Positions 5,966 to 22,347 of a stretch of 64,000 nucleotides of DNA are shown here, piece by piece. Numbering within the stretch: the first letter of the stretch is position 1; each line of letters starts with the position of its first letter. This DNA is from Lachnospiraceae bacterium (GTDB taxonomy: Bacteria; Bacillota; Clostridia; Lachnospirales; Lachnospiraceae), in assembly GCA_900768755.1 (NCBI GenBank), contig CAAGDV010000025.1, positions 39,355 to 103,354 of the forward strand. The letters run 5' to 3'. Under the pieces are notes generated by a model. That model had not been told where the DNA came from. It made no database searches and was given only the letters and a program-made list of their open reading frames with translations. The position numbers were made by a program, and so were the translations under genes.

Positions 5966-6076
5966 GTTTTGGCAGGAAGATATTGATGATTTGTGTATTC
6001 ATTTTTGTTATTAGCATATTGGCAACTATTCAGTCACATGACAAATCAAATTTGAAAGCGAAGTGGGGGAATTAAT

Positions 6077-6829
6077 ATGAGAAAAGTAATATTGTTTATG
6101 CTAATTATGGCAATGGGAACTACGCTCTGTGCATGTTCCGGCAAAGTGACCGGCTCTTCGGATTCGGAAAAAGACAGAAGTACAGAACAGAATGCAGCTT
6201 CAGATGAAAGCACGCCGGAATGGACATTGCCGGAAGACTATCGTGAATGGATGGATGAGATTCCGTCCGATGCAGAGTTAGGAGATAAGTCGTACAGTCT
6301 TGTCACTAGTGAGACCGAAAGAATATTATATCGTGATTATGACAGTCTGTACGAGGCCTCGGAGCTGATAGTTATCGGTGAGTTTATAGATGATGCAAGT
6401 CAGGAAATCAAGACCAGATATGATGATTCGCAGAAATGTGATGTCATATATGACGGAACGGCTACCAATACCTTTAGAGTTGATAAGGTTATAAAAGGCA
6501 ATGTTGAATTGGGAAGCGAGATAAGAATATCACAACGATATGTAGTTGATGAAGAGAATAAGAAAATAATATCATTCAGCAGCATGACACCCATGGAAAA
6601 AGGGACAAAATGGATTTACTGCCTCATGCCCTACAGCGAGCCAAGTAAATCATATTGGACGGCGGGGGATTACACCGGCAGATATCCCTATAGAGACATT
6701 AACTATGATGATTACATTGACGGAAAATATTCTGCAAGAGACTTGGGCGTATTGCAGCGCGGATTGTTCTACGGAACTTACGATATATATAAAACATTGG
6801 TAGAGAAAAATAATATAGTTTTTGAATAA
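6077..6829 (+). CDS. putative lipoprotein, unknown function
   Basis: Signal peptide MRKVILFMLIMAMGTTLCAC with a lipobox-like LCAC, then an acidic Ser/Asp-rich linker. RBS gaagtggggg. Confidence 0.55.
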   Translation: MRKVILFMLIMAMGTTLCACSGKVTGSSDSEKDRSTEQNAASDESTPEWTLPEDYREWMDEIPSDAELGDKSYSLVTSETERILYRDYDSLYEASELIVIGEFIDDASQEIKTRYDDSQKCDVIYDGTATNTFRVDKVIKGNVELGSEIRISQRYVVDEENKKIISFSSMTPMEKGTKWIYCLMPYSEPSKSYWTAGDYTGRYPYRDINYDDYIDGKYSARDLGVLQRGLFYGTYDIYKTLVEKNNIVFE

Positions 6830-6862
6830 TGACAGCCTGAACGAATAGTAGTTATACACAAT

Positions 6863-6894
6863 AAGGAACCTGCGTGATTTCACGCAGGTTCCTT
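6863..6894. terminator. strong hairpin between convergent genes (terminator-like, weak U-tract)
   Basis: Perfect 14-bp stem aaggaacctgcgtg/cacgcaggttcctt with loop attt. Confidence 0.55.
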
Positions 6895-6917
6895 GTATAA
6901 ATGCCATAATACAATCC

Positions 6918-9095
6918 CTATACGAGCATTGTGAGCTGAATTTTCTTTTTGGCGATATCAACGTTAAGAACCTTAACAGTTACGATATCACCCACGCTTA
7001 CGACTTCCATGGGATGCTTGATATATTTGTGCGACATCTGCGAGATGTGCACAAGACCGTCCTGATGAACGCCGATATCTACGAAAGCGCCAAAATCAAT
7101 GACATTCCGCACGGTTCCTTTAAGTTCCATTCCGGGAGTCAGATCTTTCATCTCCAAAACATCGCTTCGAAGGACCGGTTTGGGCATCTCCTCACGAGGG
7201 TCGCGTCCGGGCTTCTCAAGCTCCTTGACAATGTCTTTGAGGGTGAGCTCACCGATTGAGAGTTCTTTTGAGAGCTTCGAATAATCCTTCACGATAAGGG
7301 ACAGACCGTTAAGTCTTCCTGCGGTGATGTCCTCAGCGGTAAAACCTGTTTTGGACAGAAGTGCTTCTGCCGCCGCGTAGCTCTCGGGATGGACGCTGGT
7401 GGAATCCAAAGGGTTGTCGCCGCCGTTAATCCTCATAAAACCGGCGCATTGTTCATACGCCTTGGGACCAAGCTTTGGAACAGAAAGAAGCTCTTCTCTG
7501 GTGTGAAAACGGCCGTTAGCTTCCCTGTAGGCAACAATGTTTTTGGCAAGCTGCTTGGTAATACCGGAGATGTGTTCCAGAAGCGGCGCAGAAGCGGTGT
7601 TAAGGTCCACTCCGACACGGTTAACAGAATCCTCAACCACGCCGTTTAAGGCGTCGGAGAGTTTTTTCTGGTTCATGTCATGCTGGTACTGTCCGACGCC
7701 GATTGCCTTCGGGTCGATTTTGACAAGCTCGGCGAGGGGGTCCAAAAGTCTTCTTGCAATTGAGGCGGCACTTCTCTGGCCAACATCAAAATTCGGAAAT
7801 TCCTCGGTTGCGAGGGCGCTTGCGGAGTACACCGAAGCTCCGGCTTCATTGACGATAACATACTGAACGTCCTCGGGAATCTCTTTTATCAGCTCGGCAA
7901 TTATTGCCTCGGATTCCCTGGAGGCGGTTCCGTTGCCGCAGGAAATCAGTGAAATATTGTATTTTTTGATGAGTTTCTTGAGTATTGCTTTGGATTCCTC
8001 AACTTTGTTCTGCGGAGCGGTCGGGTATATCACAACTGTGTCGAGAACTTTGCCTGTGGCGTCAACCACCGCAAGCTTGCATCCGGTCCTGAAGGCAGGG
8101 TCCCATCCGAGAACCACATGGCCCGCAATCGGAGGCTGCATGAGGAGCTGCTCAAGATTTTTGCCAAAAACAGCGATGGCGCCGTCCTCGGCTTCCTCGG
8201 TAAGGGAATTGCGGAGTTCGCGCTCAATCGACGGCGCGATAAGGCGCTGGTAGCTGTCTGCAATTGCCTGCGAAAGGTATGTAGAAGAGTCTGAAGCTCT
8301 TAAAATAATCTGTTTCTCAAGGTAAGCGATAATCCTGTCCACGGGAGCCTCAATCCTGACTGTGAGAATCTTTTCTTTCTCGCCGCGGTTAAGTGCCAAA
8401 GTGCGGTATCCGGTCATTTTGTTCAGAGGACTCTGGAAGTTGTAGTACATCTCATATACCGACTGAACCTCTTCGTCTTTGGCGCGGGAGGTAATGAGCC
8501 CCTCCTTGAAGGTAATCTCGCGGATTCGCTGGCGGTATGATGCCTCATCGGAAATCTCCTCGGCAATTATGTCGAGGGCGCCGGCAATCGCTTCATCTGC
8601 ATTATTTACTTCTTTCTCTGCGTTAATGTACGCCTCTGCTTCTGCTACGATAACCGTTCCGGGATTCTGAAGCCTGATTATTGCAGCGAGGCCTTCAAGT
8701 CCTTTTTCCCTGGCGATGGTGGCGCGGGTGCGCTTTTTCTGTTTGTACGGGCGGTACAAATCCTCAACCTCAACCATTGTGCGGGCATCCGTGATGGCTT
8801 TCAAAAGCTCGTCCGTGAGCTTGCCCTGTTCTTTTATTGACTCGATGACCGTATCTTTTCTGTCAGAGAGATTGCGAAGGTAAGCGAGCCTCTCGTCGAG
8901 TTTACGGAGCTGCTCATCGTTGAGCGCACCGGTAGCCTCCTTGCGGTAACGTGAGATAAAAGGAATTGTACATCCCTCATCTATTAGGTTAACGGCGGCC
9001 TCAACCTGCCATTTCTTTACCTGTAATTCTTCCGTAATCTGTGAAATAATGTCCAAAATTGTGTCCTTCCTGAATAAAAAATTAATATTGTGCAA
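6918..9095 (-). CDS. tex: Tex-like RNA-binding transcription accessory protein
   Basis: 725 aa with YqgF/RNase H-like and HhH regions and a C-terminal S1 domain (GTVRNVIDFGAFVDIG). Overlaps mecA by 14 nt. Confidence 0.9.
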   Translation of the reverse strand: MHNINFLFRKDTILDIISQITEELQVKKWQVEAAVNLIDEGCTIPFISRYRKEATGALNDEQLRKLDERLAYLRNLSDRKDTVIESIKEQGKLTDELLKAITDARTMVEVEDLYRPYKQKKRTRATIAREKGLEGLAAIIRLQNPGTVIVAEAEAYINAEKEVNNADEAIAGALDIIAEEISDEASYRQRIREITFKEGLITSRAKDEEVQSVYEMYYNFQSPLNKMTGYRTLALNRGEKEKILTVRIEAPVDRIIAYLEKQIILRASDSSTYLSQAIADSYQRLIAPSIERELRNSLTEEAEDGAIAVFGKNLEQLLMQPPIAGHVVLGWDPAFRTGCKLAVVDATGKVLDTVVIYPTAPQNKVEESKAILKKLIKKYNISLISCGNGTASRESEAIIAELIKEIPEDVQYVIVNEAGASVYSASALATEEFPNFDVGQRSAASIARRLLDPLAELVKIDPKAIGVGQYQHDMNQKKLSDALNGVVEDSVNRVGVDLNTASAPLLEHISGITKQLAKNIVAYREANGRFHTREELLSVPKLGPKAYEQCAGFMRINGGDNPLDSTSVHPESYAAAEALLSKTGFTAEDITAGRLNGLSLIVKDYSKLSKELSIGELTLKDIVKELEKPGRDPREEMPKPVLRSDVLEMKDLTPGMELKGTVRNVIDFGAFVDIGVHQDGLVHISQMSHKYIKHPMEVVSVGDIVTVKVLNVDIAKKKIQLTMLV

Positions 9096-9762
9096 GAATT
9101 GTTAGTGCACTATCCTTTATGATTGTGTCGCAATGCTCGTTGAGGTATGCAAAAGTCGAGGAATTAGACTTCTCCTTCTGACCGTATTCGGACAAAAGAT
9201 TACATAACCGCACGAATTCGGTGTCATCCTCGTTATCGGTGACGACATTCAAAAGATAGAGCCCGTCTTTTTTACGCTTGTAGAGAACGCTCTTAAAGCG
9301 GGCAGGAGCCGTGCACGCTGATGCTGCCGAAGATGCCTCCTCCCATTTGCGGAAGGAGAAAACCACGCCAATCGGATGCGCGGAATCCAAAGCGCCCTCA
9401 TCCTTACGGTTCTTAATGTTCTCAAGCGTCTCGGACATGGGAATAAAACCGTCGTCGGGCTCATCCTCGCCGTCAGGCGGTTCGAAGCCTGAAAACTTCG
9501 AATCGATGTCTTCCGGGTTCTCGACTTTGGTAATAATCAGAATTATGCAGTCCGCCGATACCGGAATAGCCTCTATCATAAGCGGATAGTTGTCCGCCTC
9601 AAAACCAAACGACGCTTTTGCCTGCTCTATCATGTCGCGAAAAAGGAGTTTCGCTTTTTCAGAGCCGCATGCGAGTTCACTTAATTTTATTTCATGCGAT
9701 ATCAGATCCTCGCGGTTAAGCGTACAGCGAATCTGGGTGTCGCTTATCTTTTCTATTTTCAT
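9082..9762 (-). CDS. mecA: adaptor protein MecA
   Basis: N-terminus MKIEKISDTQIRCTLNREDL..EIKLSEL, acidic linker, C-terminal ClpC-binding domain. Confidence 0.75.
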   Translation of the reverse strand: MKIEKISDTQIRCTLNREDLISHEIKLSELACGSEKAKLLFRDMIEQAKASFGFEADNYPLMIEAIPVSADCIILIITKVENPEDIDSKFSGFEPPDGEDEPDDGFIPMSETLENIKNRKDEGALDSAHPIGVVFSFRKWEEASSAASACTAPARFKSVLYKRKKDGLYLLNVVTDNEDDTEFVRLCNLLSEYGQKEKSNSSTFAYLNEHCDTIIKDSALTILAQY

Positions 9763-9921
9763 CCTTATTCACATCCGTTCTCATACATTTTTTCATTAGT
9801 ATTATTAGTATAACGCAAGTCTTTTAGTAATGCAAATATTGTCTTTTGATATTGAAAAAATACTTGGAAAATAATAAAATGATTAACTTTCTAAAATAAT
9901 AATAAACAATCGGCAAAAGAC

Positions 9922-9950
9922 TTGAAATTCATAATTTTTTACTTTATCAT
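9922..9950 (+). promoter_or_regulatory. sigma-A promoter of the kinase operon
   Basis: -35 TTGAAA, 17-nt spacer, -10 TATCAT. The predicted TSS (about 9957) falls just after the in-frame TAG at 9954-9956. Confidence 0.55.
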
Positions 9951-9998
9951 ACATAGCACGGGGTATGTTTCCGGTTCGGACAACCGGGAGATGATAGC

Positions 9999-11321
9999 AT
10001 AAGGCAGGGCGAGATTATTTTTGGCAGATATCGGATTGACAGACTGCTTGGAGCCGGAGCCTTCGGGAAAGTCTATCTCGTTGAACATATTTATCTGAAG
10101 ACATATCGTGCACTTAAGTGCATCAACAGATGTCAGGATTCCCTTGATATGGCCCATAGGGAAGCGGACATTCTTAAGAATCTCAGACACCCTCTTATTC
10201 CGATAATCTACGATATAGAAGAGAATGATGAGAGCGTATGCATTATCGAGGAATATGTTGAGGGAATGTCGTTGGACTCACTAATAACAGACAATCATAA
10301 GTTTTCGATTAAGGAGATAATCCGGATATCGAGACAACTGTGTTCGGTGGTGAAATACCTGCACGATAACGGTATTTATCATCAGGACATAAAAGCCGAG
10401 AACATAATATGCAATGCCGGAAACATAAGGCTTATCGATTACGGGAACGCAGTTCATTCCACTAAGATACAGAAGATTCGGATGGGAAGTAAGTGGTATG
10501 CGGCACCGGAGGTATATGACGGAAAGCCCGGTGATGAACGGCAGGATATTTATTCAATCGGGGTTGTGATGCTTATGATGGCGGCAGGAAAGCCGGATAT
10601 GGACGCCATTAAAGGCTGCCCACAAGCTTTTGGTTCGGTGGTGGCAAAGTGTCTGGCTCACCAGAGCATTCGCAGATACCGGAGTGTATCGGAACTTGAC
10701 AATGCTCTTTATAAGATTAACACAAAGAAGTCTGTAACAGGTAACACATCCCGGAGAATACTGTTTATGGGGGCGCATTCCCATTGCGGTACCACTCACT
10801 GTGCAAGAATGGCAGCGGCATTTTTTTCTGCGTCGGGCAGAAAGGTTCTGCTTCGTGAGATTAACCGTTCCAAAGAGCTGATTCACATTATTTTTGAATC
10901 GGGCAGGGTGTATCTCGACCGCGGCATTTTCAGTGCTTTTGGCATGAACTGCCTTCCGTACTCGGGAGGCTGCGTGGCGTGGGATTTTGAGCAGGATTAC
11001 GACATCATCATATATGACTGCGGAGATTTAATAAGCAATGCAGTGAGAGAGGATGTGCATGCCGATGAAGTCTGTATAGTGACGGGGGCAAGGGGATATG
11101 AGCTGCAGGAACTTAAGGACATATACAGCGAGGTCCGCAAAACGGGAGTGTGCGACGGCGCAAAGCTGCATACACTTCTTAACTTCTGTGATGCGGGATT
11201 GTATATGAAGGCCGTGAGAACCGGGCAGACACAAAACCCCATAAGAGTTCCGTATATGCCGGATATACGGGGAAAAATACTTAAGAAACAGGGAAGGATA
11301 TTTTGCGCGGAAAAAAGATAA
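9999..11321 (+). CDS. Hanks-type Ser/Thr protein kinase fused to a degenerate ParA/MinD-fold domain (no canonical start codon)
   Basis: Kinase motifs GAGAFGKV, RALK, HQDIKAENI, DYG, APE. C-terminal domain has pseudo-Walker A GAHSHCGTTH, Walker B IIIYDCGD and a VPY tail. The first ATG is at 10149. SD gggaga sits 7 nt before ATA at 9999, and translation from there reads MRQGEIIFGRYRIDRLLGAGAFGKVY. Confidence 0.6.
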   Translation: MRQGEIIFGRYRIDRLLGAGAFGKVYLVEHIYLKTYRALKCINRCQDSLDMAHREADILKNLRHPLIPIIYDIEENDESVCIIEEYVEGMSLDSLITDNHKFSIKEIIRISRQLCSVVKYLHDNGIYHQDIKAENIICNAGNIRLIDYGNAVHSTKIQKIRMGSKWYAAPEVYDGKPGDERQDIYSIGVVMLMMAAGKPDMDAIKGCPQAFGSVVAKCLAHQSIRRYRSVSELDNALYKINTKKSVTGNTSRRILFMGAHSHCGTTHCARMAAAFFSASGRKVLLREINRSKELIHIIFESGRVYLDRGIFSAFGMNCLPYSGGCVAWDFEQDYDIIIYDCGDLISNAVREDVHADEVCIVTGARGYELQELKDIYSEVRKTGVCDGAKLHTLLNFCDAGLYMKAVRTGQTQNPIRVPYMPDIRGKILKKQGRIFCAEKR

Positions 11322-11884
11322 ATGAACAGGACAGGAATGTTGGTGTCGTAGGTATAGTCGGAACCGGAAACGGTGTCGGCGTCACACACACGGCGTATAT
11401 GCTCGCAGCTTTTTTTGCGGGAGTTATGGGATGCCGGGTGGCAGTGTACGAATATATATCGCTCAGTTTCCCTTGGCAGGCGGAGATTATACACAAAAAA
11501 TTTAATCACAGGGATATTAATATATATTCTCGAACTGATGGCGATGAACTCTACGATGTCATCAATCAGGGATATGACTGCGTCATTGTTGATTTTGGAA
11601 GTGAGTACGACAAAAACCGTTCGGAGTTTCTTATGTGCACACATAAAATAGTTGTCGGAAGTCTTGTCTGGTGGAATATTAGCGACTATGTGGGATTTAT
11701 CGCCAGAACCGAGGGAGAGAAATCGCGAAAGCACTGGATTTTTCTCGCGACTTCGCCGGTTGATGAGGGAATACGGTATCTCAAAAAATTAGGAATAAGT
11801 GTACAGTCGGTTCCCTATGAGCCGGACCCTCTGCGTCTTGACGAGAAAGGTCTTAATTGGGCCGGACAGCTTCCGCTTAGATGA
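11303..11884 (+). CDS. degenerate ParA/MinD-fold protein (pseudo-ATPase), paralog of the kinase C-terminal domain
   Basis: GIVGTGNGVGVTHTA aligns to the deviant Walker A GKGGVGKTT with both lysines replaced. Walker B is VIVDFG and the tail is SVPYEPDP. TTG start follows RBS gggaagga. Overlaps the kinase gene by 19 nt. Confidence 0.5.
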   Translation: MRGKKINEQDRNVGVVGIVGTGNGVGVTHTAYMLAAFFAGVMGCRVAVYEYISLSFPWQAEIIHKKFNHRDINIYSRTDGDELYDVINQGYDCVIVDFGSEYDKNRSEFLMCTHKIVVGSLVWWNISDYVGFIARTEGEKSRKHWIFLATSPVDEGIRYLKKLGISVQSVPYEPDPLRLDEKGLNWAGQLPLR

Positions 11885-11965
11885 AATTCGGTGGACGGGT
11901 GTAATTATATATCACATTTTACAGACAACCACCTCCTAATGAGCGTCCGCCGGGACGGAACAAAT

Positions 11966-12187
11966 ATGAAAAAGTATATACGAATCGCAGGTAATCCGCT
12001 CTATAATGAATTGTGCAGTCTGAACAGTATGGGCATTTCATTGATTGTTGATGACAGGAAGGTGACTCCGCATGAGGGAGCACTCTCTATGCTCGTTGCG
12101 GAGCCGGACTGCACATATATGCGCGATTACCACTATGAAGGCGGTGAAATCAAAGAAATAAGATTTGACCGCATTACAATTAAATGA
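11966..12187 (+). CDS. small hypothetical protein (73 aa)
   Basis: ORF MKKYIRIAG… with a weak SD. Convergent with the LytTR regulator. No motifs recognised. Confidence 0.25.
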   Translation: MKKYIRIAGNPLYNELCSLNSMGISLIVDDRKVTPHEGALSMLVAEPDCTYMRDYHYEGGEIKEIRFDRITIK

Positions 12188-12361
12188 CACGAGACCCCTA
12201 ATGCGTGTCACCATAACAGAAATCGTCCTCACGGAAAATAGAATTCCGGGGGACGATTTACTTAACTATACAGGTATAGTGTTCCGGGGATTTAAAAGAG
12301 TCTTTATAGGCTCTTCCGATTGGAATGTGAGTGTCATGGATATCAATGTAACGCCCATGAA

Positions 12362-12973
12362 TCATGCGAATGTAATTTGAGTTAACAATATACGATTTGT
12401 GGAACGCAAAAAGTAAGTGCACTTTTTCTTAAGGCGTGCATAAAGTGAGCCAAGTGATTCATTTACTTCAATCAGTTTACTGCTGTTCGTGTGAATAATG
12501 ACCTTGCGGTTGATGGATTCCAAATACACAATATTATTCACAGAAACAGATTGTGTATTTCTGTTACACACAATCCGGATCATGTTATTGTCTGAATCGA
12601 GTCTGCATATTAGTTTATTCATAACATTAGCAAAATCATCGTGCGATACAGGCTTTGCAAGAAAATCAAACGGATGCAGTGAAAACAACCGGGCAAGATT
12701 ATCGGTGTGAGAAGATACAAACACAATATATATATTCTCATCAACATCTATTTCTCTTAATGACAGACCGATGGTGTAACCATCAATTTCAGGCATCTCA
12801 ATATCAATAAAGACAATATCATACAGCTTGTCATTACGGCAGGTGTCGATAAAACATTTCCCGTCGGAATAAGCATCAATAACGGCGTTATTAAGATTCG
12901 GCAGCCGGCGAATGAATTCGAAAAGAGTCTGATATAAATAAGGCTCGTCACTAACAATTGCGATATTGTACAT
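12362..12973 (-). CDS. LytTR-family response regulator (REC + LytTR), orphan
   Basis: REC: MYNIAIVSDE…IVFIDIEMPEIDG…FLAKP. C-terminal LytTR-like region (IVYLESINRKVIIHT…FLRS). ATG at 12973 with RBS aaggaggga. The tracked ORF has a spurious N-terminal extension. Confidence 0.75.
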   Translation of the reverse strand: MYNIAIVSDEPYLYQTLFEFIRRLPNLNNAVIDAYSDGKCFIDTCRNDKLYDIVFIDIEMPEIDGYTIGLSLREIDVDENIYIVFVSSHTDNLARLFSLHPFDFLAKPVSHDDFANVMNKLICRLDSDNNMIRIVCNRNTQSVSVNNIVYLESINRKVIIHTNSSKLIEVNESLGSLYARLKKKCTYFLRSTNRILLTQITFA

Positions 12974-13341
12974 AAATCCCTCCTTACATAAAAATATAAT
13001 ACTATAAATTATGGATTGTTGCAATATCAGGATCAAAAATTGTTTTGACACGTGTAGATGGTTGTTTGCACATGTTAAACTGTCGTTTGTACCATTTCGC
13101 ACACAAGCGGACGATATTGTGATATAATAACTTAATAGATACATAACGGCAGTAGACATATTTCATATGCATAAAGACTAACTATTAAAAGTCAAGTCTT
13201 AAAATGATATTTTTGAATAAAGTACAGAAATGTATTTTAGATATATTTTGAACTCAGTTGGAGTTCTTTGTTCTTTGAAAACTGCATGACAAAAAGAGCA
13301 TCGTGATAGGTGCTCAAAAAGGAGTATGGAATTAGAATTGA

Positions 13342-14517
13342 TTAAGCCGCTTTGATGTATTGTTGATTCGATTTCTCAAGATGATAAATGACTCGAACCA
13401 GTTTTTTTACAGCATGTGATATGGCGACGTTATAGTGTTTACCTTCTGCTCGTTTTTTGGCGAGATAGGCTGCAAAAGTTGGATCCCAATGACAGACGTA
13501 TTTAGCTGCGTTGTACAAAGCATACCGAAGATAACGAGAACCTCGTTTTTCCATATGTGCGTAAGCACTATCCAGTTGCCCAGATTGGTATGTAGATGGT
13601 GAGAAACCGGCATAAGCCAGGATTTTATCTGGAGAATCAAAACGACTGAAATCACCAATCTCAGCAATAATCATAGCACCCATACGATAGTTAATTCCTG
13701 GTATGCTAAGAATTGGAGAATTGATTTCATCCATCATGACTTTGATTTCATTTTCGATTTCATCAATTTCTGAATCAAGTTCCTGAATTAACTTGATGGT
13801 GTGTTTCAGCTCCAGTGATTTTGCCGGCATATTTGAGCCGATAGAAGCTCTGGCGGCTTCTCTAAATGTAATAGAAGTATCTTTACCATATCGGCCTTTA
13901 GAAGCTTCTGAAAGAAGATTGGTAAGCCGGGTAAGATGAGCAGTAGCTACTTGTTTAGCGCCGGGAAACTCAGATAGCATTGCATATACGGATGCCATAT
14001 GAAGTGTCGGTACTAGTTTTTCTAATTCAGGGAATAAGATACAGACAAGTCTTGAAACGGAAGTTTTCAGTTTGGCACGCTCTTTTACTTTATCAAAACG
14101 ATAACGAGTTAATGACTTTAGCTCTTCGTTGTGATAAGATATGTCTGAGTAGGACTTTAAGTTCACATCAGACATCAGCATAGAAGCAATCGTGCGGGCA
14201 TCTACTTTATCCGTTTTCGTCTGTCTAAGGCTTAGACTTTTTCTGTACAGATTTGTATGTAACGGATTGATAACATAGGCGGGCAAACCTTTATCAATGA
14301 GATATCCTAGAAGATTGTAGCTATAGTGTCCTGTGGCTTCCAGTCCTACTTTTACTTTTGTTACATCTTCCATAACGGATTCAATCTTTCGATAAAGTTC
14401 ATTGAAACCATCTAGGTTGTTAGCGATGGGAAATGCTTTAAATAACACTTCTCCATCAGAATTGGTGATGAAGCAATCATGCTTATCCTTGGCAACATCA
14501 ATTCCTACGTAAATCAT
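13342..14517 (-). CDS. IS110-family transposase (DEDD RuvC-like N-terminus + C-terminal Tnp domain)
   Basis: MIYVGIDVAKDKHD…LEATGHY…, 391 aa. RBS aaggag (revcomp of ctcctt at 14524-14529). Confidence 0.9.
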   Translation of the reverse strand: MIYVGIDVAKDKHDCFITNSDGEVLFKAFPIANNLDGFNELYRKIESVMEDVTKVKVGLEATGHYSYNLLGYLIDKGLPAYVINPLHTNLYRKSLSLRQTKTDKVDARTIASMLMSDVNLKSYSDISYHNEELKSLTRYRFDKVKERAKLKTSVSRLVCILFPELEKLVPTLHMASVYAMLSEFPGAKQVATAHLTRLTNLLSEASKGRYGKDTSITFREAARASIGSNMPAKSLELKHTIKLIQELDSEIDEIENEIKVMMDEINSPILSIPGINYRMGAMIIAEIGDFSRFDSPDKILAYAGFSPSTYQSGQLDSAYAHMEKRGSRYLRYALYNAAKYVCHWDPTFAAYLAKKRAEGKHYNVAISHAVKKLVRVIYHLEKSNQQYIKAA

Positions 14518-14529
14518 AATAAATCTCCT

Positions 14530-14830
14530 TTGAAATGTATTTGATACTGTTTTAGAACCACAGGTGCTCCTTGCGATTGTAACCTCGTTCTAAATAAACC
14601 GTCATGCGGTATCTAACTGATTAACAAATGAACAAAGAGACTGTGGTTGGAGCCTTTCCTAAACCATCTGGTGGTAGGAGAAGTAACCAATCCACAGCAT
14701 CTTATATATCATAGTCTAACCTACGGAAGAGGTAAAGAAGAGACTATGACTTAATAGTATTAAAGACCTTGGAGAGGGTCTCTAAAAACTACTACTATAT
14801 AATACGAGGGAGGATTTCTTTTCACTTAAG
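14530..14830 (-). ncRNA. candidate IS110 bridge (seek) RNA in the 5' non-coding region of the transposase
   Basis: Long stem ctgtggttgg…ccaatccacag (14640-14698) and hairpin agaccttggagagggtct (14765-14784). The position matches IS110-subgroup bridge-RNA placement. Confidence 0.35.
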
Positions 14831-14863
14831 CTGCATTATGTGAGGGATGAGTTGGTGGAAGCA

Positions 14864-14889
14864 CATGTGGAGTAATTATATGTGGAGTA
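14864..14889. repeat. 11-nt direct repeat atgtggagtaa x2
   Basis: Copies at 14864-14874 and 14879-14889, separated by ttat. Confidence 0.6.
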
Positions 14890-14891
14890 AC

Positions 14892-14999
14892 TATCCTTCT
14901 GTGGGTACGTTCGCACTTATGTTGGAAACGTAGCGGACACTAAGATTGCAAAATACGCAATCTAAGTGCCGACGTTTCCAAAAAACCCACAGAAGGATA
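14892..14999. repeat. triple-nested perfect inverted repeats (cruciform/REP-like element)
   Basis: Outer 15-bp arms tatccttctgtgggt/acccacagaaggata. Middle 10-bp ttggaaacgt/acgtttccaa. Inner 6-bp gattgc/gcaatc. Confidence 0.8.
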
Positions 15000-15009
15000 A
15001 TTACATCCC

Positions 15010-15100
15010 GGGCTGTGCAAAGCGGAGGGATATTGGCACCTGAGGGTACGCAAAACGGAGGGACAATGATATCTCTGGGTGTGTGATGCGGACAAGCATT
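15010..15100. repeat. three degenerate ~30-nt tandem repeats (gYRcaaaRcggaSggaNa…)
   Basis: gtgcaaagcggagggatattgg, gtacgcaaaacggagggacaatg, gtgtgatgcggacaagcattgg. Confidence 0.5.
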
Positions 15101-15129
15101 GGAATGCTTCGATGTGGCGTTGGTATATT
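15099..15129 (+). promoter_or_regulatory. putative arsC promoter (extended -10)
   Basis: -35 TTGGAA, 19-nt spacer, TGgTATATT. Confidence 0.35.
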
Positions 15130-15154
15130 AAAAATGTTTTAAGAGGTTTTGATT

Positions 15155-15565
15155 ATGGATAAGAAGAGAGTGGCATTTATCTGTGTGCATAATTCCTGCA
15201 GAAGTCAGATTGCGGAGGCGCTCGGAAAACATCTGGCAGGAGATTGCTTTGAGTTTTATTCTGCCGGAACGGAGATAAAGCCTCAGATTAATCAGGATGC
15301 TGTAAGGCTTATGAATGAAATCTATAATATCGATATGGAGGCCAATGGTCAGCACAGCAAGCTCGTTGCAAAACTTCCGGAGATTGATATTGCAATCGCC
15401 ATGGGGTGCAATGTCGGCTGCCCGTTTGTTGGACGGCCATTTGATGACGACTGGGGTCTTGACGACCCGACCGGCAAATCGGATGAGGAGTTTCGACGGG
15501 TTATCAGCCGGATAGAGGGAAAAATTTTGGAGCTCAGAAATCATATTACAATGCAACCGAGATGA
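15155..15565 (+). CDS. arsC: arsenate reductase (LMW-PTP family, thioredoxin-coupled)
   Basis: CVHNSCRSQ (CX5R P-loop), downstream Cys pair …DWGLDDP…. RBS aagagg. ATG at 15155. Confidence 0.8.
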   Translation: MDKKRVAFICVHNSCRSQIAEALGKHLAGDCFEFYSAGTEIKPQINQDAVRLMNEIYNIDMEANGQHSKLVAKLPEIDIAIAMGCNVGCPFVGRPFDDDWGLDDPTGKSDEEFRRVISRIEGKILELRNHITMQPR

Positions 15566-15655
15566 TGATTTTGAGCAGATAAAAGGAAAAAATCTGTTTC
15601 ACACTTTTTGTCCAGAAATGGTCAGAAACGCTGTAAATATTTTGGAGGAAATGAT

Positions 15656-15693
15656 TGCGGAAGGCTTATTTTGAAACCTTCTGCTTTTTTTGT
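15656..15693 (+). terminator. intrinsic terminator after arsC
   Basis: Stem gcggaagg/ccttctgc (one G·U pair) followed by a T7 run. Confidence 0.5.
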
Positions 15694-15726
15694 AACAGCG
15701 AATGAATTATTCTTCCGCACTCAACC

Positions 15727-15751
15727 CCCTCCTATGGAGGGACTTTTTGCC
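15727..15751 (+). terminator. second hairpin+T-run
   Basis: ccctcc tat ggaggg followed by actttttg. Confidence 0.4.
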
Positions 15752-15917
15752 TTGCAAACCCCAAAATCTTTCCATGACATGACTTAAATAGCATTTTAAA
15801 CCAAAAAAGAGGGAGATTGACAGAAAATACCCCCTAAAAGAGGGGTGAAGGGGGTGAGATGGGTTTGGTACTATATACTCAACAAAGGGAAAACACTTTA
15901 TGTATGGAGGGAACATA

Positions 15918-17414
15918 ATGAAAACAAGAGCAATGAAGAGAATCGTATCTTTTGCATTGACAATGGCTGTTGCAGTAACAATGATTGCAGCAGGATTTAT
16001 TACAAAAGCTAAGGCTGATGTGAATGTATTCGAGACATATCTTGATGATTTAAAGTATACAGGCAAGTTTGTTGTATACGCTGACACATTTTTTCAGAGA
16101 TGCCATATCGACGGAAATATCGCAGTTAATTCTCTTGAAGAAGCGGCAGAGGGAATCAAGTCGCCTGTCAACTATTACTCATATGTTGCCGATGGAAACG
16201 GAAAGAGTTATTCATACCTTAACGGAAATACATATCTTTTCGGAAACAATGTTTTGCCGGGCAATCTTAACGGCGGAAGCAGATATATGAATCTTAACGG
16301 AAACACAAATGCTGCATCAATTATTGCAAAAGAAATGGGTCTTAGTTCTTCTAAGGTGGCTAAAGAAATCGAAATCAGAGATATGCTTGGCACAATCAGT
16401 GCGGCATCTGCTGCAGTAAGAAAAACAATGAGCACCGGGTACACAGGACTTGCAGCACTTAACAGAGTAAACACCTCCGCTACATATAATTATATATTCG
16501 CAACAGTACAGGACATCGCTAATTCAGAGTTTATCAAAGCAGTTGACAGATATACATCAACAGTTCTTAACGGAACCAACAAGGTGCTTGTTATCATGGT
16601 AATTCCGAATGCACAGACAGCATCAATTAACTTCAATGAGCCGATGAACGGAACAGCAGGATATTCCACAGCATCAGGTAACCTTATCTGGGATTTCGCA
16701 GACTTCACAGGTTCAGTAGTTATCAATGCAACAGCAGACGGTGTATTTGTAGCACCGAACGGAAGCGTAGTTAACAATGCACCGGTAGACGGAAGAATCG
16801 TTGCCAAGACAGTTGAGCAGCAAGGACAGGAGATTCACTATCCTATCGGCAGCATGGAGTGGGAGAAAGAGACAACAACAGAAGCTACAACCTCAACAAC
16901 GGAGGAAGCAACCACAACAACAGAAGAGGTAACTACAACAACAGAGGAAGCAACCACAACAACAGAGGAAGCAACCACAACAACAGAAGAGGTAACTACA
17001 ACAACAGAGGAAGCAACCACCACTACAGAGGCTACTACCACAACAACAGAAGCTGCAACCACAACAACAGAAGAAGCTACTACGACAACAGAAGCTGCAA
17101 CCACAACAACAGAGGAAGCAACCACCACTACAGAGGCTACTACCACAACAACTGAAGAAGCTACCACCACAACAGAGGAAGAGACAACAACAGATGAGCC
17201 TGCTACAACAAAGAGCGGCGAAGTTGAGGCTGACGAGGAGACAACCACAACAACAGAAGAGCGTACTACTACAAGAAGGGGTGGCGAAGTTGAGGCTGAT
17301 GAGGAGGCCAACACAGGTGACAGCGGAATGCTCGAAGTATATAGCATTCTTATGGTAATCTCAGGATTTGGTGTTGCAGGACTCGGAGCAGTCGCTTTCA
17401 TCAAGAAAAGATAA
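15918..17414 (+). CDS. cell-surface protein with signal peptide, Thr/Glu-rich tandem-repeat stalk and C-terminal TM anchor
   Basis: MKTRAMKRIVSFALTMAVAVTMIAAGFITKAKA signal. (TTTEEATTTTEEV)n repeats. C-terminal …NTGDSGMLEVYSILMVISGFGVAGLGAVAFIKKR with no LPXTG. RBS ggaggg. Confidence 0.7.
   Translation: MKTRAMKRIVSFALTMAVAVTMIAAGFITKAKADVNVFETYLDDLKYTGKFVVYADTFFQRCHIDGNIAVNSLEEAAEGIKSPVNYYSYVADGNGKSYSYLNGNTYLFGNNVLPGNLNGGSRYMNLNGNTNAASIIAKEMGLSSSKVAKEIEIRDMLGTISAASAAVRKTMSTGYTGLAALNRVNTSATYNYIFATVQDIANSEFIKAVDRYTSTVLNGTNKVLVIMVIPNAQTASINFNEPMNGTAGYSTASGNLIWDFADFTGSVVINATADGVFVAPNGSVVNNAPVDGRIVAKTVEQQGQEIHYPIGSMEWEKETTTEATTSTTEEATTTTEEVTTTTEEATTTTEEATTTTEEVTTTTEEATTTTEATTTTTEAATTTTEEATTTTEAATTTTEEATTTTEATTTTTEEATTTTEEETTTDEPATTKSGEVEADEETTTTTEERTTTRRGGEVEADEEANTGDSGMLEVYSILMVISGFGVAGLGAVAFIKKR
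16868..17185 (+). repeat. in-frame tandem ~36-nt coding repeats (Thr/Glu/Ala)
   Basis: Repeated acaacagaggaagcaaccacaacaaca units. The antisense ORF 16838..17404 is an artefact of the repeats. Confidence 0.85.
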
Positions 17415-17460
17415 TCAGAAGAATTGAACAGTCAGAAAAGTATATATAAGGTTGAATGTT

Positions 17461-17491
17461 TAGGGCTGTCACGGGCGTGTGATAGCCCTAC
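17461..17491 (+). terminator. hairpin terminator after the surface-protein gene
   Basis: 8-bp stem tagggcta/tagcccta followed by a weak T-tract. Confidence 0.4.
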
Positions 17492-17545
17492 TGATTTATA
17501 TTGAACATTTTGTCAGAAAAGTTATATATACGACAAATGCCATAA

Positions 17546-17586
17546 AATCAACGGCTGAATGCTAAACAGATTAGCCTTCAGCCGTA
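17546..17586 (-). terminator. terminator downstream of the MacB-like gene
   Basis: 9-bp stem acggctgaa/ttcagccgt. On the minus strand it is followed by tgattttatgg. Confidence 0.45.
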
Positions 17587-17655
17587 TCATTATCATAGAA
17601 GATATATTTTACAGACTTTATTTCATAGTCGTCTCTTGCTTAATATTTGACGAAT

Positions 17656-20304
17656 TTACTCAGTCCTCAGCGCAATAACAGGGTCTTTCCGTGAAGCAAC
17701 CTTTGCAGGGATGAGCCCGGCGATGAGGGTGAGGCCTACGCTGATGATAATCAGTATGACCGCGCCCTGCCACGGCAGTTTGGCGACGCCTGAGATGCCT
17801 GACAAAGCTTTGATTAAAATGTTGGCAGGTATATCAAGGAGCAGGGTGATTCCTATTCCCAACACGCCCGAAACCAGTCCTACTATCATGGTCTCTGCAT
17901 TAAAGACTCTTGAAACATCGTGTTTTGAGGCACCGATACTTCTTAAGATACCGATTTCCTTAGTCCGTTCAAGAACAGAGATGTATGTGATGATACCAAT
18001 CATGATTGATGAAACCACAAGCGAAATCGATACAAATGCTATCAGGACATACGATATTGCATTTACGATTGTGCTGACTGACGACATCATAAGTCCGATG
18101 TAGTCGGTGTAGGTTATCTCAAGATTGTCATTGCCTTCAGCGAGAACTTTTTTGTTGTAATCACTTATGATTGAGGTAATCTTATCCTTGCCGGCAAAAT
18201 CCTTTGCGTAGATGCTGATTCTGTAAGGAACGTCAGGGTCCGCATATCCGAGAAGTGAAAGGTTGGTGCTGTATGAGCTTGTTGACTGTGTCTGAAGCTG
18301 CGCCTTAAACATCTCAAGAATCTGGTCCTCACTCATGAGTGAGAGGGCAGCCTGATACTGCTGCTGTTGCTCAAGCGGAAGGGTGGCGATGTATGCATAG
18401 ATATCTTCGATGGTGATTTTTTCAATCTCCTCATCTGCGTTGACGAACGGAAGAGAGGTGAAGACATCAATCTCGGGGTCGGCAAGCTGCTTTTTGATAA
18501 GCTCGGAACGATTGGTCTCCTCGATAACCTTCATTGTGAGGTCTTTTGTGTATGCGATTGTTCCGTTTATGGAGGTCGCAACCGCGTCCTCATCAGGCTC
18601 AATGATTCCGACGATTTTTAACGGCATGCCTTCTGCAACCAGCTTGTTCAGATACTCTTCATCAGAGGAACGGTCTTCCCATCTGCCGGATTTCTCATCG
18701 TATTCGTAGTAATCGCAAGGAAGAACCAGGCTGAAATTCAAGTTAAAAATATCATCATAAGAATAAACGGTATCGTCAGTGTTAATCGTGTTGCCGTTTC
18801 CAATCTGGGAAAAAATGTTTTTCAGCTCGGAAGCATCCTTAAGTCCGAGTGCGTAGAGCGTCACATCGGAGATGGTGTGATGCTCGTCGGTTACGAGAAC
18901 GACTTCGTTGTAAGCCGAAGGCCATCTTCCGGCAAGAATATTGTATTGTTCATTAAGAAGCTCCTGATTGTCAATCATCTCGACCCACATATTGGAATTA
19001 CTGTAGTATGACATCATCTGGGAGGAGTCGCTTCCCATTGATACGCCCATGATGTCTTCCATGAGAGTGCTCGGGTTGACTTTGACGGTGCCGTTTTCGG
19101 TGCCGGTAGCATATATGTTAAGGTCAATCTGGTATGAATATTTTATATCCGATATGTATTCTGCAATATTGGTTGCAGGGTCCTCAAGATACTCTTTAAG
19201 CTCCTTGAGGCTGTTTGTCTTGACTTCGGACATCATGGCGTTAATCATGTCGCCGAGTATGGAATTGGTGTACAGAAATCCCGGCTCAGGATTCTCGATG
19301 ACGTTGCTTTTTCCGAGCATCTGCTCCATGAGACCGGACATATCCATCTGCTCGCTCTCGATTGTGATGGGGTATGTTGAAATTGTGTCTTCCTGGACTC
19401 TGTCGATATATGCCTGAAAACCGTTTGAAAGCGAAAGAATGAGTGCGATTCCTATTATTCCGATACTTCCGGCAAAAGAAGTGAGGAAGGTACGACCTTT
19501 TTTTGTCAGCAGGTTCTTAAAGCTTAACGAGAGGGCAGTAAAAAATGACATTGAGACGCCGGCCTTCTTGTTTTTTTTCTTTGGAACGGTAGGAGAAGTG
19601 ACCTGCGTTGGTTCTGATGTCTCTGCCATATACGGATTACTGTCATCAATTACTTTTCCGTCGAGAAGGCGGATGATTCTTGTTGAGTACTGCTCGGCAA
19701 GCTCCCCGTTGTGCGTTACCATGATGATGAGCTTATCGTCGGCAATCTCTTTTAATATATTCATAATCTGTACGCTTGTCTCAGAGTCAAGTGCGCCTGT
19801 CGGCTCATCGGCAAGAATGATATCGGGGTCGTTGACGAGGGCGCGGGCGATTGCAACACGCTGCATCTGGCCGCCGGACATCTGGTTGGGCTTCTTGTGA
19901 AGCTGGTCGCCGAGGCCGACTTTCTTGAGGGCTTCCGTAGCACGTTTGACGCGCTCGGATTTGGATACGCCCGAAAGAGTGAGCGCAAGTTCTACATTGG
20001 AAAGAACAGTCTGGTGCGGAATAAGATTATAGTTCTGAAATACAAAACCTATCTTATGGTTGCGGTAGCTGTCCCAGTCGCGGTCCTTAAAAAGCTTTGT
20101 GGAGCGTCCGCCAATGACGAGGTCCCCGCTTGTATATCTGTCCAGACCGCCTATTATATTGAGCATGGTTGTTTTGCCGCATCCGGACGGACCGAGTATG
20201 GATACAAACTCATGCTCACGGAAATCGAGAGTTATGCCCTTAAGAGCCATAACCTCAGAATCACCCGCAATGTAGTTCTTTGTAATATTATTGAGACTTA
20301 ACAT
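17656..20304 (-). CDS. MacB-like ABC transporter, fused ATP-binding and FtsX-like permease domains
   Basis: N-terminal [35 protein letters not shown]. Large extracytoplasmic domain and C-terminal 4-TM FtsX-type region. Confidence 0.85.
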
Positions 20305-20440
20305 ACGGTTATCCTTTCTTTGCTGTGATATTCATTTTCTTATTGTAACGAAAGTAAAAAAAATATCAATAGACAAAAAATAAAATTTTTATAAAAATAA
20401 TACAAATTCAAAGATTTTTGCTGATTTATTTGGGGTTCTG

Positions 20441-20449
20441 TGTTACAAT
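20441..20449 (+). promoter_or_regulatory. extended -10 (TGtTACAAT) for the deacetylase gene
   Basis: tgttacaat lies 54 nt upstream of the ATG at 20503. -35 is poorly defined. Confidence 0.35.
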
Positions 20450-20502
20450 ATGATAAATATGTCTGTATAGTGTGTGCAAGAGCACATAAGAAGGAGAATC
20501 AT

Positions 20503-21558
20503 ATGAAAGAGGACAGCGACGTCATATCAGAGAGAGAGCAGCGAAAGAAAAGGGTCAGATTATACAAAAGGATAATTTTGATATTGCTATTTTCCATAAT
20601 TATCCTGCCGACGATTCTTTGCATAATTCTTTTTGCCAAGCTTAACAGGATGAATGACAGGATTTCTAAGCTTAGCGCTTTGATTGAGCAGGAATCTGCT
20701 TATAATTCAGGGGCAAGTGAGGATGACACGGATTCGACCCCGACATCGGGGGATAACCTTGACGGGGATGTAACATCGGGTGAGGATGCATCCGCTCCGA
20801 CGAATTCGTCGGAGACAGAACCGGAGACAGAACCGGAGACAGAGCCGGAGACAGAGCCGGAGACGAGCGAAGCACCAACGGATCCTGCCAATACGCAGAA
20901 CACTCAGGAGCCGGGTGAAAAGGAACTGGTGGCGCAGGCCTTGGCAGAGGGCCGCAAGGTTGTGTATCTTACCTTTGACGACGGACCGTACAACAATACC
21001 AACAATCTTTTGGATCTGCTGGCAAAATATAATGTAAAGGCAACGTTTTTTGTCGTCGGTAACAAAATGCACAATGACAGCCTTCAGCGCATTGTCAACG
21101 AGGGACACAGCATCGGAATCCATTCGGTAACACATGATTACGCCAAGATATATGCCAGTGTTGATGCACTTGCCGAAGAGATATATGAGATGCAGGATTA
21201 TATTTTTCAGGTGACGGGATATAAGACATATCTTTTCAGATTTCCCGGAGGCTCAAGTAACAGCAAGACCAAGATACCTATTTCCGAATTTACGAGTTTT
21301 CTTAATGAGAACGGATTTACATATTTTGACTGGAATGTGTCGTCGGGCGACGGAGGAAACGTGATATCGTCTGACGAGGTTTACAATAATGTTATGAATG
21401 GCCTCAGCAAGGTCCAGAGTGCAGTTGTGCTGATGCATGATTCGCAGGGCAAGCTTACAACATACGAGGCGCTGCCGAGGATAATCGAGACTCTGCAGGC
21501 GCAGAATGCACTAATTTTACCTATTACTGAGGATACGGTGCCGGTGCACCACCGATAA
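20503..21558 (+). CDS. polysaccharide deacetylase (NodB domain), membrane-anchored with acidic Pro/Glu/Thr linker
   Basis: VYLTFDDGP, IGIHSVTHDY, N-terminal TM, linker (ETEP)n. RBS aaggag. Confidence 0.8.
   Translation: MKEDSDVISEREQRKKRVRLYKRIILILLFSIIILPTILCIILFAKLNRMNDRISKLSALIEQESAYNSGASEDDTDSTPTSGDNLDGDVTSGEDASAPTNSSETEPETEPETEPETEPETSEAPTDPANTQNTQEPGEKELVAQALAEGRKVVYLTFDDGPYNNTNNLLDLLAKYNVKATFFVVGNKMHNDSLQRIVNEGHSIGIHSVTHDYAKIYASVDALAEEIYEMQDYIFQVTGYKTYLFRFPGGSSNSKTKIPISEFTSFLNENGFTYFDWNVSSGDGGNVISSDEVYNNVMNGLSKVQSAVVLMHDSQGKLTTYEALPRIIETLQAQNALILPITEDTVPVHHR
20814..20867 (+). repeat. 12-nt tandem repeat gagacagaaccg x~4.5 encoding (ETEP)n
   Basis: Read directly from the sequence. Confidence 0.85.
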
Positions 21559-21588
21559 CCAGACAATTTAATTAAGGAGGATTTTATA

Positions 21589-22347
21589 ATGGGTTTTTTT
21601 AAAGATTTTAAAGAGGATTTGTCACAGGCTGTCAGCGAGTTGTCTGATGATGCAGGAAAGCTTATGGGCGGGAGCGCGGAAGAAGAGAAGGTTATTGACG
21701 ATGACGCAATGGTAGACACTCTTATGGAAGACGAAGAGGCTGAGATTCAGATGGAACAGTCACTTAAGAATCTTGTTAATTCTCTTGACGATGAGCCGGA
21801 GGCAGAAGAGGAGGACGAGAGCAGTGCTTTCGAGGAAGATATTGAGGAGAGAACTGACGATCCGGATGATAAGCAGGAGATTTCAGGCGATACTGCAAGC
21901 GATGAGACTACAATAATTACGCCGGGTCTTGCAATCAAAGGTGATATTACATGCAATGGTTCAATTGAGCTTCTCGGTAAGGTTGAGGGTAATGTTACCT
22001 GCCGCGGAAAGCTTGTTGTGAGCGGAGCGATAGAGGGAAATTCATCGTCTTCCGATTTCTATGCGGACAAAGCACGCATCACAGGAGATATTACCTGTGA
22101 GGGTCCTGCCAAAATCGGCAACGGCTCCGTTATCATCGGCAACCTCGTTGCAACCTCAGCGGTTATCGCCGGTGCAATCAAGGGAGACATCGATGTTCAG
22201 GGACCGGTTATTGTTGACACAACCGCAATTGTTATGGGCAACATCAAATCAAAACTTGTCCAGATTAATAACGGCGCGGTGCTTGAGGGATATGTATCGC
22301 AGTGCTATTCGGACAACAGCCCGAAGAAATTTTTCGGTAATCTATAA
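21589..22347 (+). CDS. bactofilin-family cytoskeletal protein with acidic N-terminal extension
   Basis: Repetitive β-helix G-x-I/V motifs (GDITCNGSIELLGKVEGNVTCRGKLVVSGAIEG…), DUF583-like. Confidence 0.7.
   Translation: MGFFKDFKEDLSQAVSELSDDAGKLMGGSAEEEKVIDDDAMVDTLMEDEEAEIQMEQSLKNLVNSLDDEPEAEEEDESSAFEEDIEERTDDPDDKQEISGDTASDETTIITPGLAIKGDITCNGSIELLGKVEGNVTCRGKLVVSGAIEGNSSSSDFYADKARITGDITCEGPAKIGNGSVIIGNLVATSAVIAGAIKGDIDVQGPVIVDTTAIVMGNIKSKLVQINNGAVLEGYVSQCYSDNSPKKFFGNL

Follow-up and report, generated by a model that had tools for sequence, protein, structure and literature searches.

A conserved three-gene module in Lachnospiraceae that combines a Hanks-type kinase with degenerate ParA/MinD-fold domains

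Genes and domains at the locus

We analyzed a stretch of 64,000 nucleotides (nt), here called the window, from a Lachnospiraceae bacterium (assembly GCA_900768755.1, contig CAAGDV010000025.1, positions 39,355 to 103,354), in which an initial annotation made from the sequence alone had proposed a candidate signaling module. Three close-packed open reading frames (ORFs) lie on the plus strand between mecA (9082-9762, minus strand; MecA model, E 2.6e-59) and an IS110 element (Table 1). The first encodes a Hanks-type Ser/Thr kinase fused to a degenerate ParA/MinD-fold domain (A), the second a free-standing domain of the same kind (B), and the third a small protein. We found that kinase-A, B, and the small protein constitute a real and conserved module, so far unnamed, within known superfamilies, and that the anatomy of this module is solid.

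Table 1. Features of the module and its surroundings (positions in the window)
Feature	Position	Strand	Description
Kinase-A gene	9999..11321	+	440-aa soluble Hanks-type Ser/Thr kinase with C-terminal A-type pseudo-ATPase domain; likely start ATA 9999
Kinase catalytic domain	10029..10703	+	Residues 11 to ~235; Pfam Pkinase match at residues 11-207
A-type degenerate ParA/MinD-fold domain	10722..11267	+	Kinase residues 242-423
B gene	11303..11884	+	193-aa free-standing B-type pseudo-ATPase; TTG start
Small-protein gene	11966..12187	+	73 aa; conserved motif YMRDY...G.(I/L)KEIRFD
Leader hairpin	9968..9990	+	Pairs with the ribosome-binding site GGGAG (9986-9990)
Sigma-70-type promoter-like site	9922..9950	+	TTGAAA-17-TATCAT, upstream of the kinase gene; 10/12 matches in a consensus scan
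Synteny break	12217..12218	.	From blastn of related loci against the window; directly after a short hairpin 3' of the small gene
REC-LytTR response-regulator pseudogene	12258..12973	-	Frameshift at T5 run 12423-12427; outside the module
IS110-family transposase gene	13342..14517	-	DEDD_Tnp_IS110 E 2.7e-41, Transposase_20 E 4.8e-22; not part of the module

The identity of the first product as a Hanks kinase was confirmed by the Pfam Pkinase model, which scored 152.6 bits against a gathering cutoff of 31.7 (E 1.8e-44; residues counted from 9999). The catalytic residue set of Hanks kinases is complete, comprising the G-loop GAGAFGKV (residues 18-25), the beta-3 Lys40, the alpha-C Glu55, the catalytic loop HQDIKAEN with D130 and N135, DYG 147-149 with D147, and APE 169-171, and the enzyme is predicted to be active. 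The arginine of the HRD motif is missing, as the window kinase reads HQD and its relatives read HQD, HHD, or YLD; this makes it a non-RD kinase, a subtype that does not exclude Hanks membership. No transmembrane segment, PASTA, or other sensor domain was detected in the kinase by Pfam and NCBIfam scans. The best domain-level match in NCBIfam was PknB_PASTA_kin (E 2.2e-41), far under the full-length cutoff of that model.

All of the motifs from which the relationship between the kinase tail and the next gene product had been proposed were located, i.e., GAHSHCGTTHCA, IIIYDCGD, and VPYMPD in the former and GTGNGVGVTHTA, CVIVDFGS, and VPYEPD in the latter. Domain A comprises a pseudo P-loop GAHSHCGTTH (residues 258-267), E-x-N (287-289), a Walker-B-like IIIYD (336-340), LLN (393-395), and VPYMPD (417-422). 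Protein B, whose N terminus aligns with those of its homologs from residue 1, has a pseudo P-loop GTGNGVGVTH (20-29), a Walker-B-like CVIVD (93-97), FLMCxxKIVVGSxxWW, and VPYEPD (170-175). To call the two domains clear paralogs was an overstatement at the level of raw sequence, where the kinase tail and the 193-aa protein, compared pairwise by BLASTP, gave one 12-residue match (E 0.04, near noise), but the paralogy itself was borne out by profiles. Indeed, hhalign between an alignment of ten B-type proteins and one of six kinase tails gave a probability of 97.8% (E 9.7e-13) over 169 columns, and a B-type profile of 69 sequences gave 49 bits on kinase residues 242-423 in hmmsearch. Judging from these comparisons, A and B are paralogs.

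The ParA/MinD (SIMIBI) fold assigned to both domains in the initial annotation was upheld. In the predicted model of B, the glycine-rich loop follows strand 1 and precedes helix 1, and a strand ends in the conserved Asp, which places the two at the Walker A and Walker B positions. Sequence-profile searches of the PDB returned marginal matches only, to ParA, Get3, and SRP54, and none of the curated ParA/MinD models (CbiA, AAA_31, ParA, and MipZ) scored above its threshold for A or B; below threshold, AAA_31 matched the window kinase tail (E 0.048) and 7 of 69 family members, and CbiA matched 6 of 69.

The loss of the signature and Walker A lysines (KGGxxGK[ST]) holds in A and B and extends family-wide. 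Of the 150 best family representatives, the loop pattern (consensus G-x-x-x-G-x-G-[VTA]-T) is present in 127, and Lys occurs at either Walker A position in none of these 127. The earlier term "lysine-less" is therefore correct for both Walker A positions but not for the domains as a whole, which have 10 and 11 lysines elsewhere. Other positions are strongly retained: G17, G20, G26, T28, H29, E50, D97, and G99 are invariant or almost so in the B family, and GTT, E-x-N, hhhhD, and the LLN motif are retained in the A type.

Conservation, family range, and chromosomal context

For comparison, we sampled twelve other lineages, whose B proteins go down to ~25% identity with that of the window. Eleven of them (L001, L002, L003-5, L006, L007, L010, L011, L012/13, L016, L018/19, and L024-26) have enough upstream sequence for gene order to be read, and the twelfth, L014, begins inside the module. 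The order common to the eleven is kinase-A, B, and usually a small ORF, with fused or single-domain variants in L018/19 and L012/13. The gene pair described from the window is thus conserved, kinase-A being followed by B in L001-L007, L010, L011, L016, and L024-26. The 19-nt overlap of the two genes (11303-11321) was also confirmed; in relatives the overlap ranges from 4 to 31 nt, except that the genes of L006, L011, and L024 are instead ≤10 nt apart. This usual overlap suggests translational coupling of the kinase and B.

As to the variants, L018/19 encode a single 637-aa protein consisting of kinase, A, and B, and the kinase of Diplocloster (L012/13) has a single domain with no separate B gene after it. 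In L018 (6925-7848) and L019 (4364-5287), a 307-aa protein replaces the free-standing B gene before the small YMRDY gene; it has an N-terminal hydrophobic segment, possibly membrane-spanning, and no Pfam match.

The 73-aa ORF, whose presence had been recorded correctly, was treated in the initial annotation as a spacer, yet it proved to be a conserved third gene. Homologs directly follow the B gene, or else the fused kinase gene, in L001, L002, L010, L011, L012, L014, L016, L018, and L024, that is, in 9 of the 12 sampled lineages besides the window, and the L011 homolog, which was left out of profile building, scores E 2.9e-17. No homolog was found in L003, L006, or L007. By this conservation, the ~75-residue protein is regarded as the third member of the module.

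The family of the pseudo-ATPase domain is not marginal. An exhaustive profile (hidden Markov model) search yielded 1,403 clusters at 50% identity with E ≤ 0.001, of which 664 had E ≤ 1e-10, and word-indexed homolog searches badly undercounted it (1, 9, and 2 hits). Most members are ~200 residues long, and every long hit scanned (355-681 aa) consists of an N-terminal Pkinase and a C-terminal pseudo-ATPase domain, some with the domain twice. Sources that name the members at all use "hypothetical protein [Clostridium sp.]" or "serine/threonine protein kinase [Diplocloster agilis]". The taxonomic range is drawn from few named genomes, namely, Diplocloster agilis, Suonthocola fibrivorans, "Clostridium sp." metagenome-assembled genomes (MAGs), and Butyrivibrio; a GTDB locus search with a narrow alignment found one genome only, an uncultured Butyrivibrio MAG. 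Besides, one family member appears in 316 indexed blocks of the assembly collection, and metagenome assemblies of the human-gut type were the source of the contigs read for it.

ParA/MinD ATPases and Hanks kinases represent two main routes by which bacteria organize and regulate their cells. Their hard-wired union is absent from Pfam, NCBIfam, and PADLOC, and we found no description of a kinase joined to a degenerate ParA/MinD domain in the literature searched. In agreement with the initial annotation, which did not recognize a described family here, none of the three databases has a model for the new pseudo-ATPase domain, and B, the A domain, and the small protein are all without a Pfam or NCBIfam model. 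Defining the family would provide a new domain family for annotation, a natural case of a P-loop nucleoside triphosphatase (NTPase) pair turned pseudo-enzyme scaffold, and a lead on Ser/Thr signaling beside spore-cortex genes in abundant gut anaerobes.

The surroundings of the module are conserved as well. Upstream lies mecA in most loci, and GH18 and Amidase_3 genes follow downstream in every locus with a sufficiently long contig, the latter encoding a CwlD-like amidase (216 bits against a CwlD model cutoff of 221.6); many loci continue with sua5, a low-molecular-weight phosphatase gene, rpiB, and the atp operon. The most similar locus, L010 (96% identical), is colinear with window positions 6023-12217 and then continues with GH18, Amidase_3 (CwlD-like), Sua5, LMWPc, RpiB, and the atp operon. 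Past 12217, the window itself has the 3' end of a regulator gene, the IS110 transposase gene, an ArsC-type phosphatase gene, and unrelated genes, and the GH18/cwlD/sua5/atp genes found downstream in relatives are absent from it. The module occupies the same chromosomal position although the B proteins have diverged to 25-45% identity, which argues for vertical descent and not for a mobile defense island. Gene order thus indicates that the module is vertically inherited at one chromosomal site in Lachnospiraceae-type Clostridia. In L003-L005, small phage-like genes (HTH_3, VbhA, DUF7723, and DUF7724) lie upstream of the kinase gene (L003 1-4641), where others have mecA; this looks like a prophage or island insertion.

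Possible modes of action and known systems

We favor, with modest confidence, the explanation that the three genes form a signaling module in which A and B regulate or localize the cytoplasmic kinase as a ParA-style pseudo-dimer. A and B would pair face to face like ParA/MinD-type ATPases, and their pseudo-dimer would resemble the two fused halves of ArsA. The best argument that they act as a pair is the fusion or fission of the paralogous SIMIBI domains in L018/19, as in ArsA versus Get3. Because the lysines that clamp the nucleotide are gone, the pair would be a scaffold, either fixed or regulated by phosphorylation, and not a switch driven by ATP. Such a scaffold might set the location of the kinase or its partners, or might gate the kinase, and the small protein may be a bound partner or a kinase substrate. 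The place of the module between mecA and the genes for GH18 and the CwlD-like amidase hints, as a purely positional link, at an involvement in the development of the spore cortex or cell wall.

Several points weigh against this explanation. Of the seven close lineages compared, four have no canonical start codon for the kinase, and expression is therefore assumed. The model of A is of moderate confidence (predicted local distance difference test [pLDDT] score of 68), and the score falls below 50 at residues 68-89 and 182-201. Retention of the glycine-rich loop, its Thr, the E-x-N after strand 2, and the Walker-B Asp may leave residual nucleotide or phosphate binding possible. Furthermore, the series mecA...cwlD-sua5-rpiB-atp is a conserved Firmicutes backbone, so that adjacency to it may say nothing about function, and in the window a rearrangement has parted GH18/cwlD from the module, which implies that physical linkage is not essential.

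The main rival, which we consider unlikely, is that A and B are working nucleotide switches, which would bind ATP, GTP, or another phosphorylated ligand by their glycine-rich loop, Thr/His, E-x-N, and Walker-B Asp, dimerize in dependence on that ligand, and so tie the kinase to the energy or nucleotide status of the cell. The Walker A lysine of P-loop NTPases normally contacts the beta and gamma phosphates, and its absence from both positions in all 127 loop-bearing members tells against a working switch, as does the failure of every curated ATPase model to reach threshold. What speaks for a switch is the near-invariance of the B residues listed above, together with the GTT, E-x-N, hhhhD, and LLN retained in A. 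Besides, TadZ, which is related to ParA/MinD and whose Walker A motif is deviant, is reported still to bind ATP for dimerization (PMC13170226).

We regard as improbable a further idea, in which the lysine-less P-loops of A and B would read protein-borne phosphate, so that phosphorylation by the kinase would replace ATP in closing the A-B sandwich. The residue phosphorylated might be the P-loop Thr that is invariant in the partner domain, or it might lie in the YMRDY protein. If true, a positioning ATPase of the ParA/MinD kind would have become a switch, driven by the kinase, that sets the place or the timing of a cell-wall or spore-cortex event in Lachnospiraceae.

Comparison with known systems sets the module apart in several respects. 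ParA/MinD proteins (MinD, Soj/ParA, FlhG/FleN, McdA, and MipZ) have the lysines of KGGxxGK[ST], whereas GAHSHCGTTH and GTGNGVGVTH occur here instead; they are, moreover, single homodimerizing proteins, whereas here two paralogs occur as a pair, one of them fused to a protein kinase. The nearest functional precedent is TadZ/CpaE, in which an atypical Walker A motif, a fused signaling domain, and a role in localization are combined in one ParA/MinD protein. However, within that group (to which we compare also the actinobacterial Ssd) the fused domain of TadZ is an N-terminal REC-like domain rather than a kinase, and TadZ/CpaE belong to tad/cpa pilus loci, whereas the module neighbors mecA, GH18, cwlD-like, sua5, and atp genes and no pilus genes. 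Paired relatives such as ArsA/Get3, Ffh-FtsY, Nbp35-Cfd1, and the mycobacterial Get3-like A/B proteins have intact P-loop lysines and NTPase activity, and no protein kinase is fused to any of them; an ArsA/Get3-like pairing of A with B is what we infer for the module.

On the kinase side, the Firmicutes Hanks kinases PrkC/Stk1 and YabT have the same catalytic domain. In contrast to them, the module kinase lacks the HRD arginine and any detected transmembrane or PASTA segment, and the place of the C-terminal sensor or anchor is taken by the degenerate ParA/MinD domain. Bacterial tyrosine kinases (BY-kinases; Wzc/CapB), which have a MinD-like fold, rank under ParA/MinD in the comparison and need a Walker A lysine that is absent here. 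BY-kinases carry a C-terminal tyrosine cluster, and no cluster of this type is visible in the sequences.

It is very improbable that the module serves in anti-phage defense as a Ser/Thr-kinase-based system like PD-T4-6 or Mad6, in which the pseudo-ATPases would be the sensors or effectors. The kinase domain does match PADLOC mad6 (E 1.2e-48) and PD-T4-6 (down to E 8.7e-46), and the phage-like genes of L003-L005 lie just upstream of the module. These matches are, however, confined to the generic kinase domain (residues ~3-200), which is all that the module shares with the PD-T4-6/Mad6 kinases, and B and the small protein match nothing. The chromosomal context by mecA and GH18/cwlD/sua5/rpiB/atp is fixed, not that of a variable defense island, even with B proteins as divergent as those described above.

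The kinase start and the rearranged region downstream

Although the kinase frame is open from 9957, the first ATG, GTG, or TTG occurs only at 10149, 3' of the codons for the G-loop and the catalytic lysine. The start at 9999 given in the initial annotation can be accepted as approximate, but the codon there is a non-canonical ATA, which sits 8 nt after GGGAG (9986-9990). The Shine-Dalgarno motif CCGGGAGATG(A/G)T is kept, independently of the reading frame, in six of the seven lineages compared, the exception being L007, and the same six have an in-frame ATA, ATC, or ATT 5-9 nt 3' of it, whereas a usable ATG for the kinase exists in only three of the seven. This pattern of the start region was seen in the window (9957-10148) and in L001, L002, L003, L006, and L010. 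The conserved Shine-Dalgarno motif and the ATA, ATC, or ATT that follows it in relatives point to a conserved non-canonical start and not to decay, and we infer that translation of the kinase begins at ~9999 at such an initiation codon.

That the locus is decaying, the kinase being a pseudogene without a start codon and nothing functional being encoded, is accordingly hard to credit, even though gene callers shorten the kinase to 350-390 aa, the regulator gene beside it is itself a pseudogene, and the region has undergone rearrangement by an IS110 element. At the protein level, the 50 N-terminal codons are conserved, those for the G-loop and the catalytic Lys among them; internal stops occur in no lineage; and the same startless layout recurs in relatives of ~40-60% protein identity.

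The hairpin in the leader has a stem of 9 bp (UUUCCGGUU/AACCGGGAG). Its fold has an energy of -12.5 kcal/mol (z -1.45), which by itself is not significant; relatives have a similar CCGGT/ACCGG pairing in the leader, with some compensating changes. The promoter-like site farther upstream is a consensus match only, and shuffled sequence holds as many such sites as the whole region. A sporulation-specific promoter 5' of the kinase was also considered, but the best match was this ordinary sigma-70-type site.

Beyond the synteny break lies the orphan REC-LytTR regulator, which had been proposed as part of the module and as a plausible kinase substrate. It is convergent and starts at 12973, as first described, but it is not intact. 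The LytTR domain as encoded covers profile positions 5-50 of 98, and adding one base extends the match to 5-94 of 98 (E 4e-11). An independent metagenome assembly, L020, which is 99.97% identical over 14.6 kb, has the same frameshift and the same IS110 element; the lesion is therefore real and not a sequencing slip. A distant relative, L024, has a LytTR two-component pair ~3.8 kb downstream of the module, with a regulator 22% identical to that of the window and its own histidine kinase. Signaling from the kinase to the regulator, suggested by their nearness in the window, by the lack of a histidine kinase among the neighboring ORFs scanned (an observation of the initial annotation that stood), and by the pair in L024, is refuted as a conserved association and can be all but dismissed, since the gene is frameshifted in the window and L020, lies past the break at 12217 by the IS110 element, and is missing from this position in all 11 other lineages examined, and the L024 regulator is only distantly similar and has a kinase of its own. 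The possibility that the window regulator is a remnant of an L024-like two-component pair was likewise rejected, given the 22% identity and the absence of any histidine kinase trace in the window.

The IS110 transposase falls in a 90%-identity cluster of 6,487 members, and the ends of the element may be marked by an imperfect direct repeat, GAAATGTATTT..., found at 13227 and 14532. In the ~630-nt non-coding stretch past it, a 20-nt inverted repeat (14887-15004; 95% complementary, 78 nt between the arms) was observed; within this region, 14929-14994 has 80% identity with the intergenic region upstream of GH18 in L002. An Rfam scan of 9000-18000 returned nothing credible, the best E value for this repeat being 0.97. 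Farther downstream on the plus strand, 15900-17414 encodes a 504-aa protein with long Thr/Glu-rich repeats (TTTTEEATTTTEE...), a hydrophobic C-terminal segment, and no Pfam match, which is probably surface anchored or glycosylated. Finally, 20440-22347, also on the plus strand, holds genes for a polysaccharide deacetylase (Polysacc_deac_1, E 1.2e-30) and, after it, a bactofilin-domain protein (E 3.2e-23).

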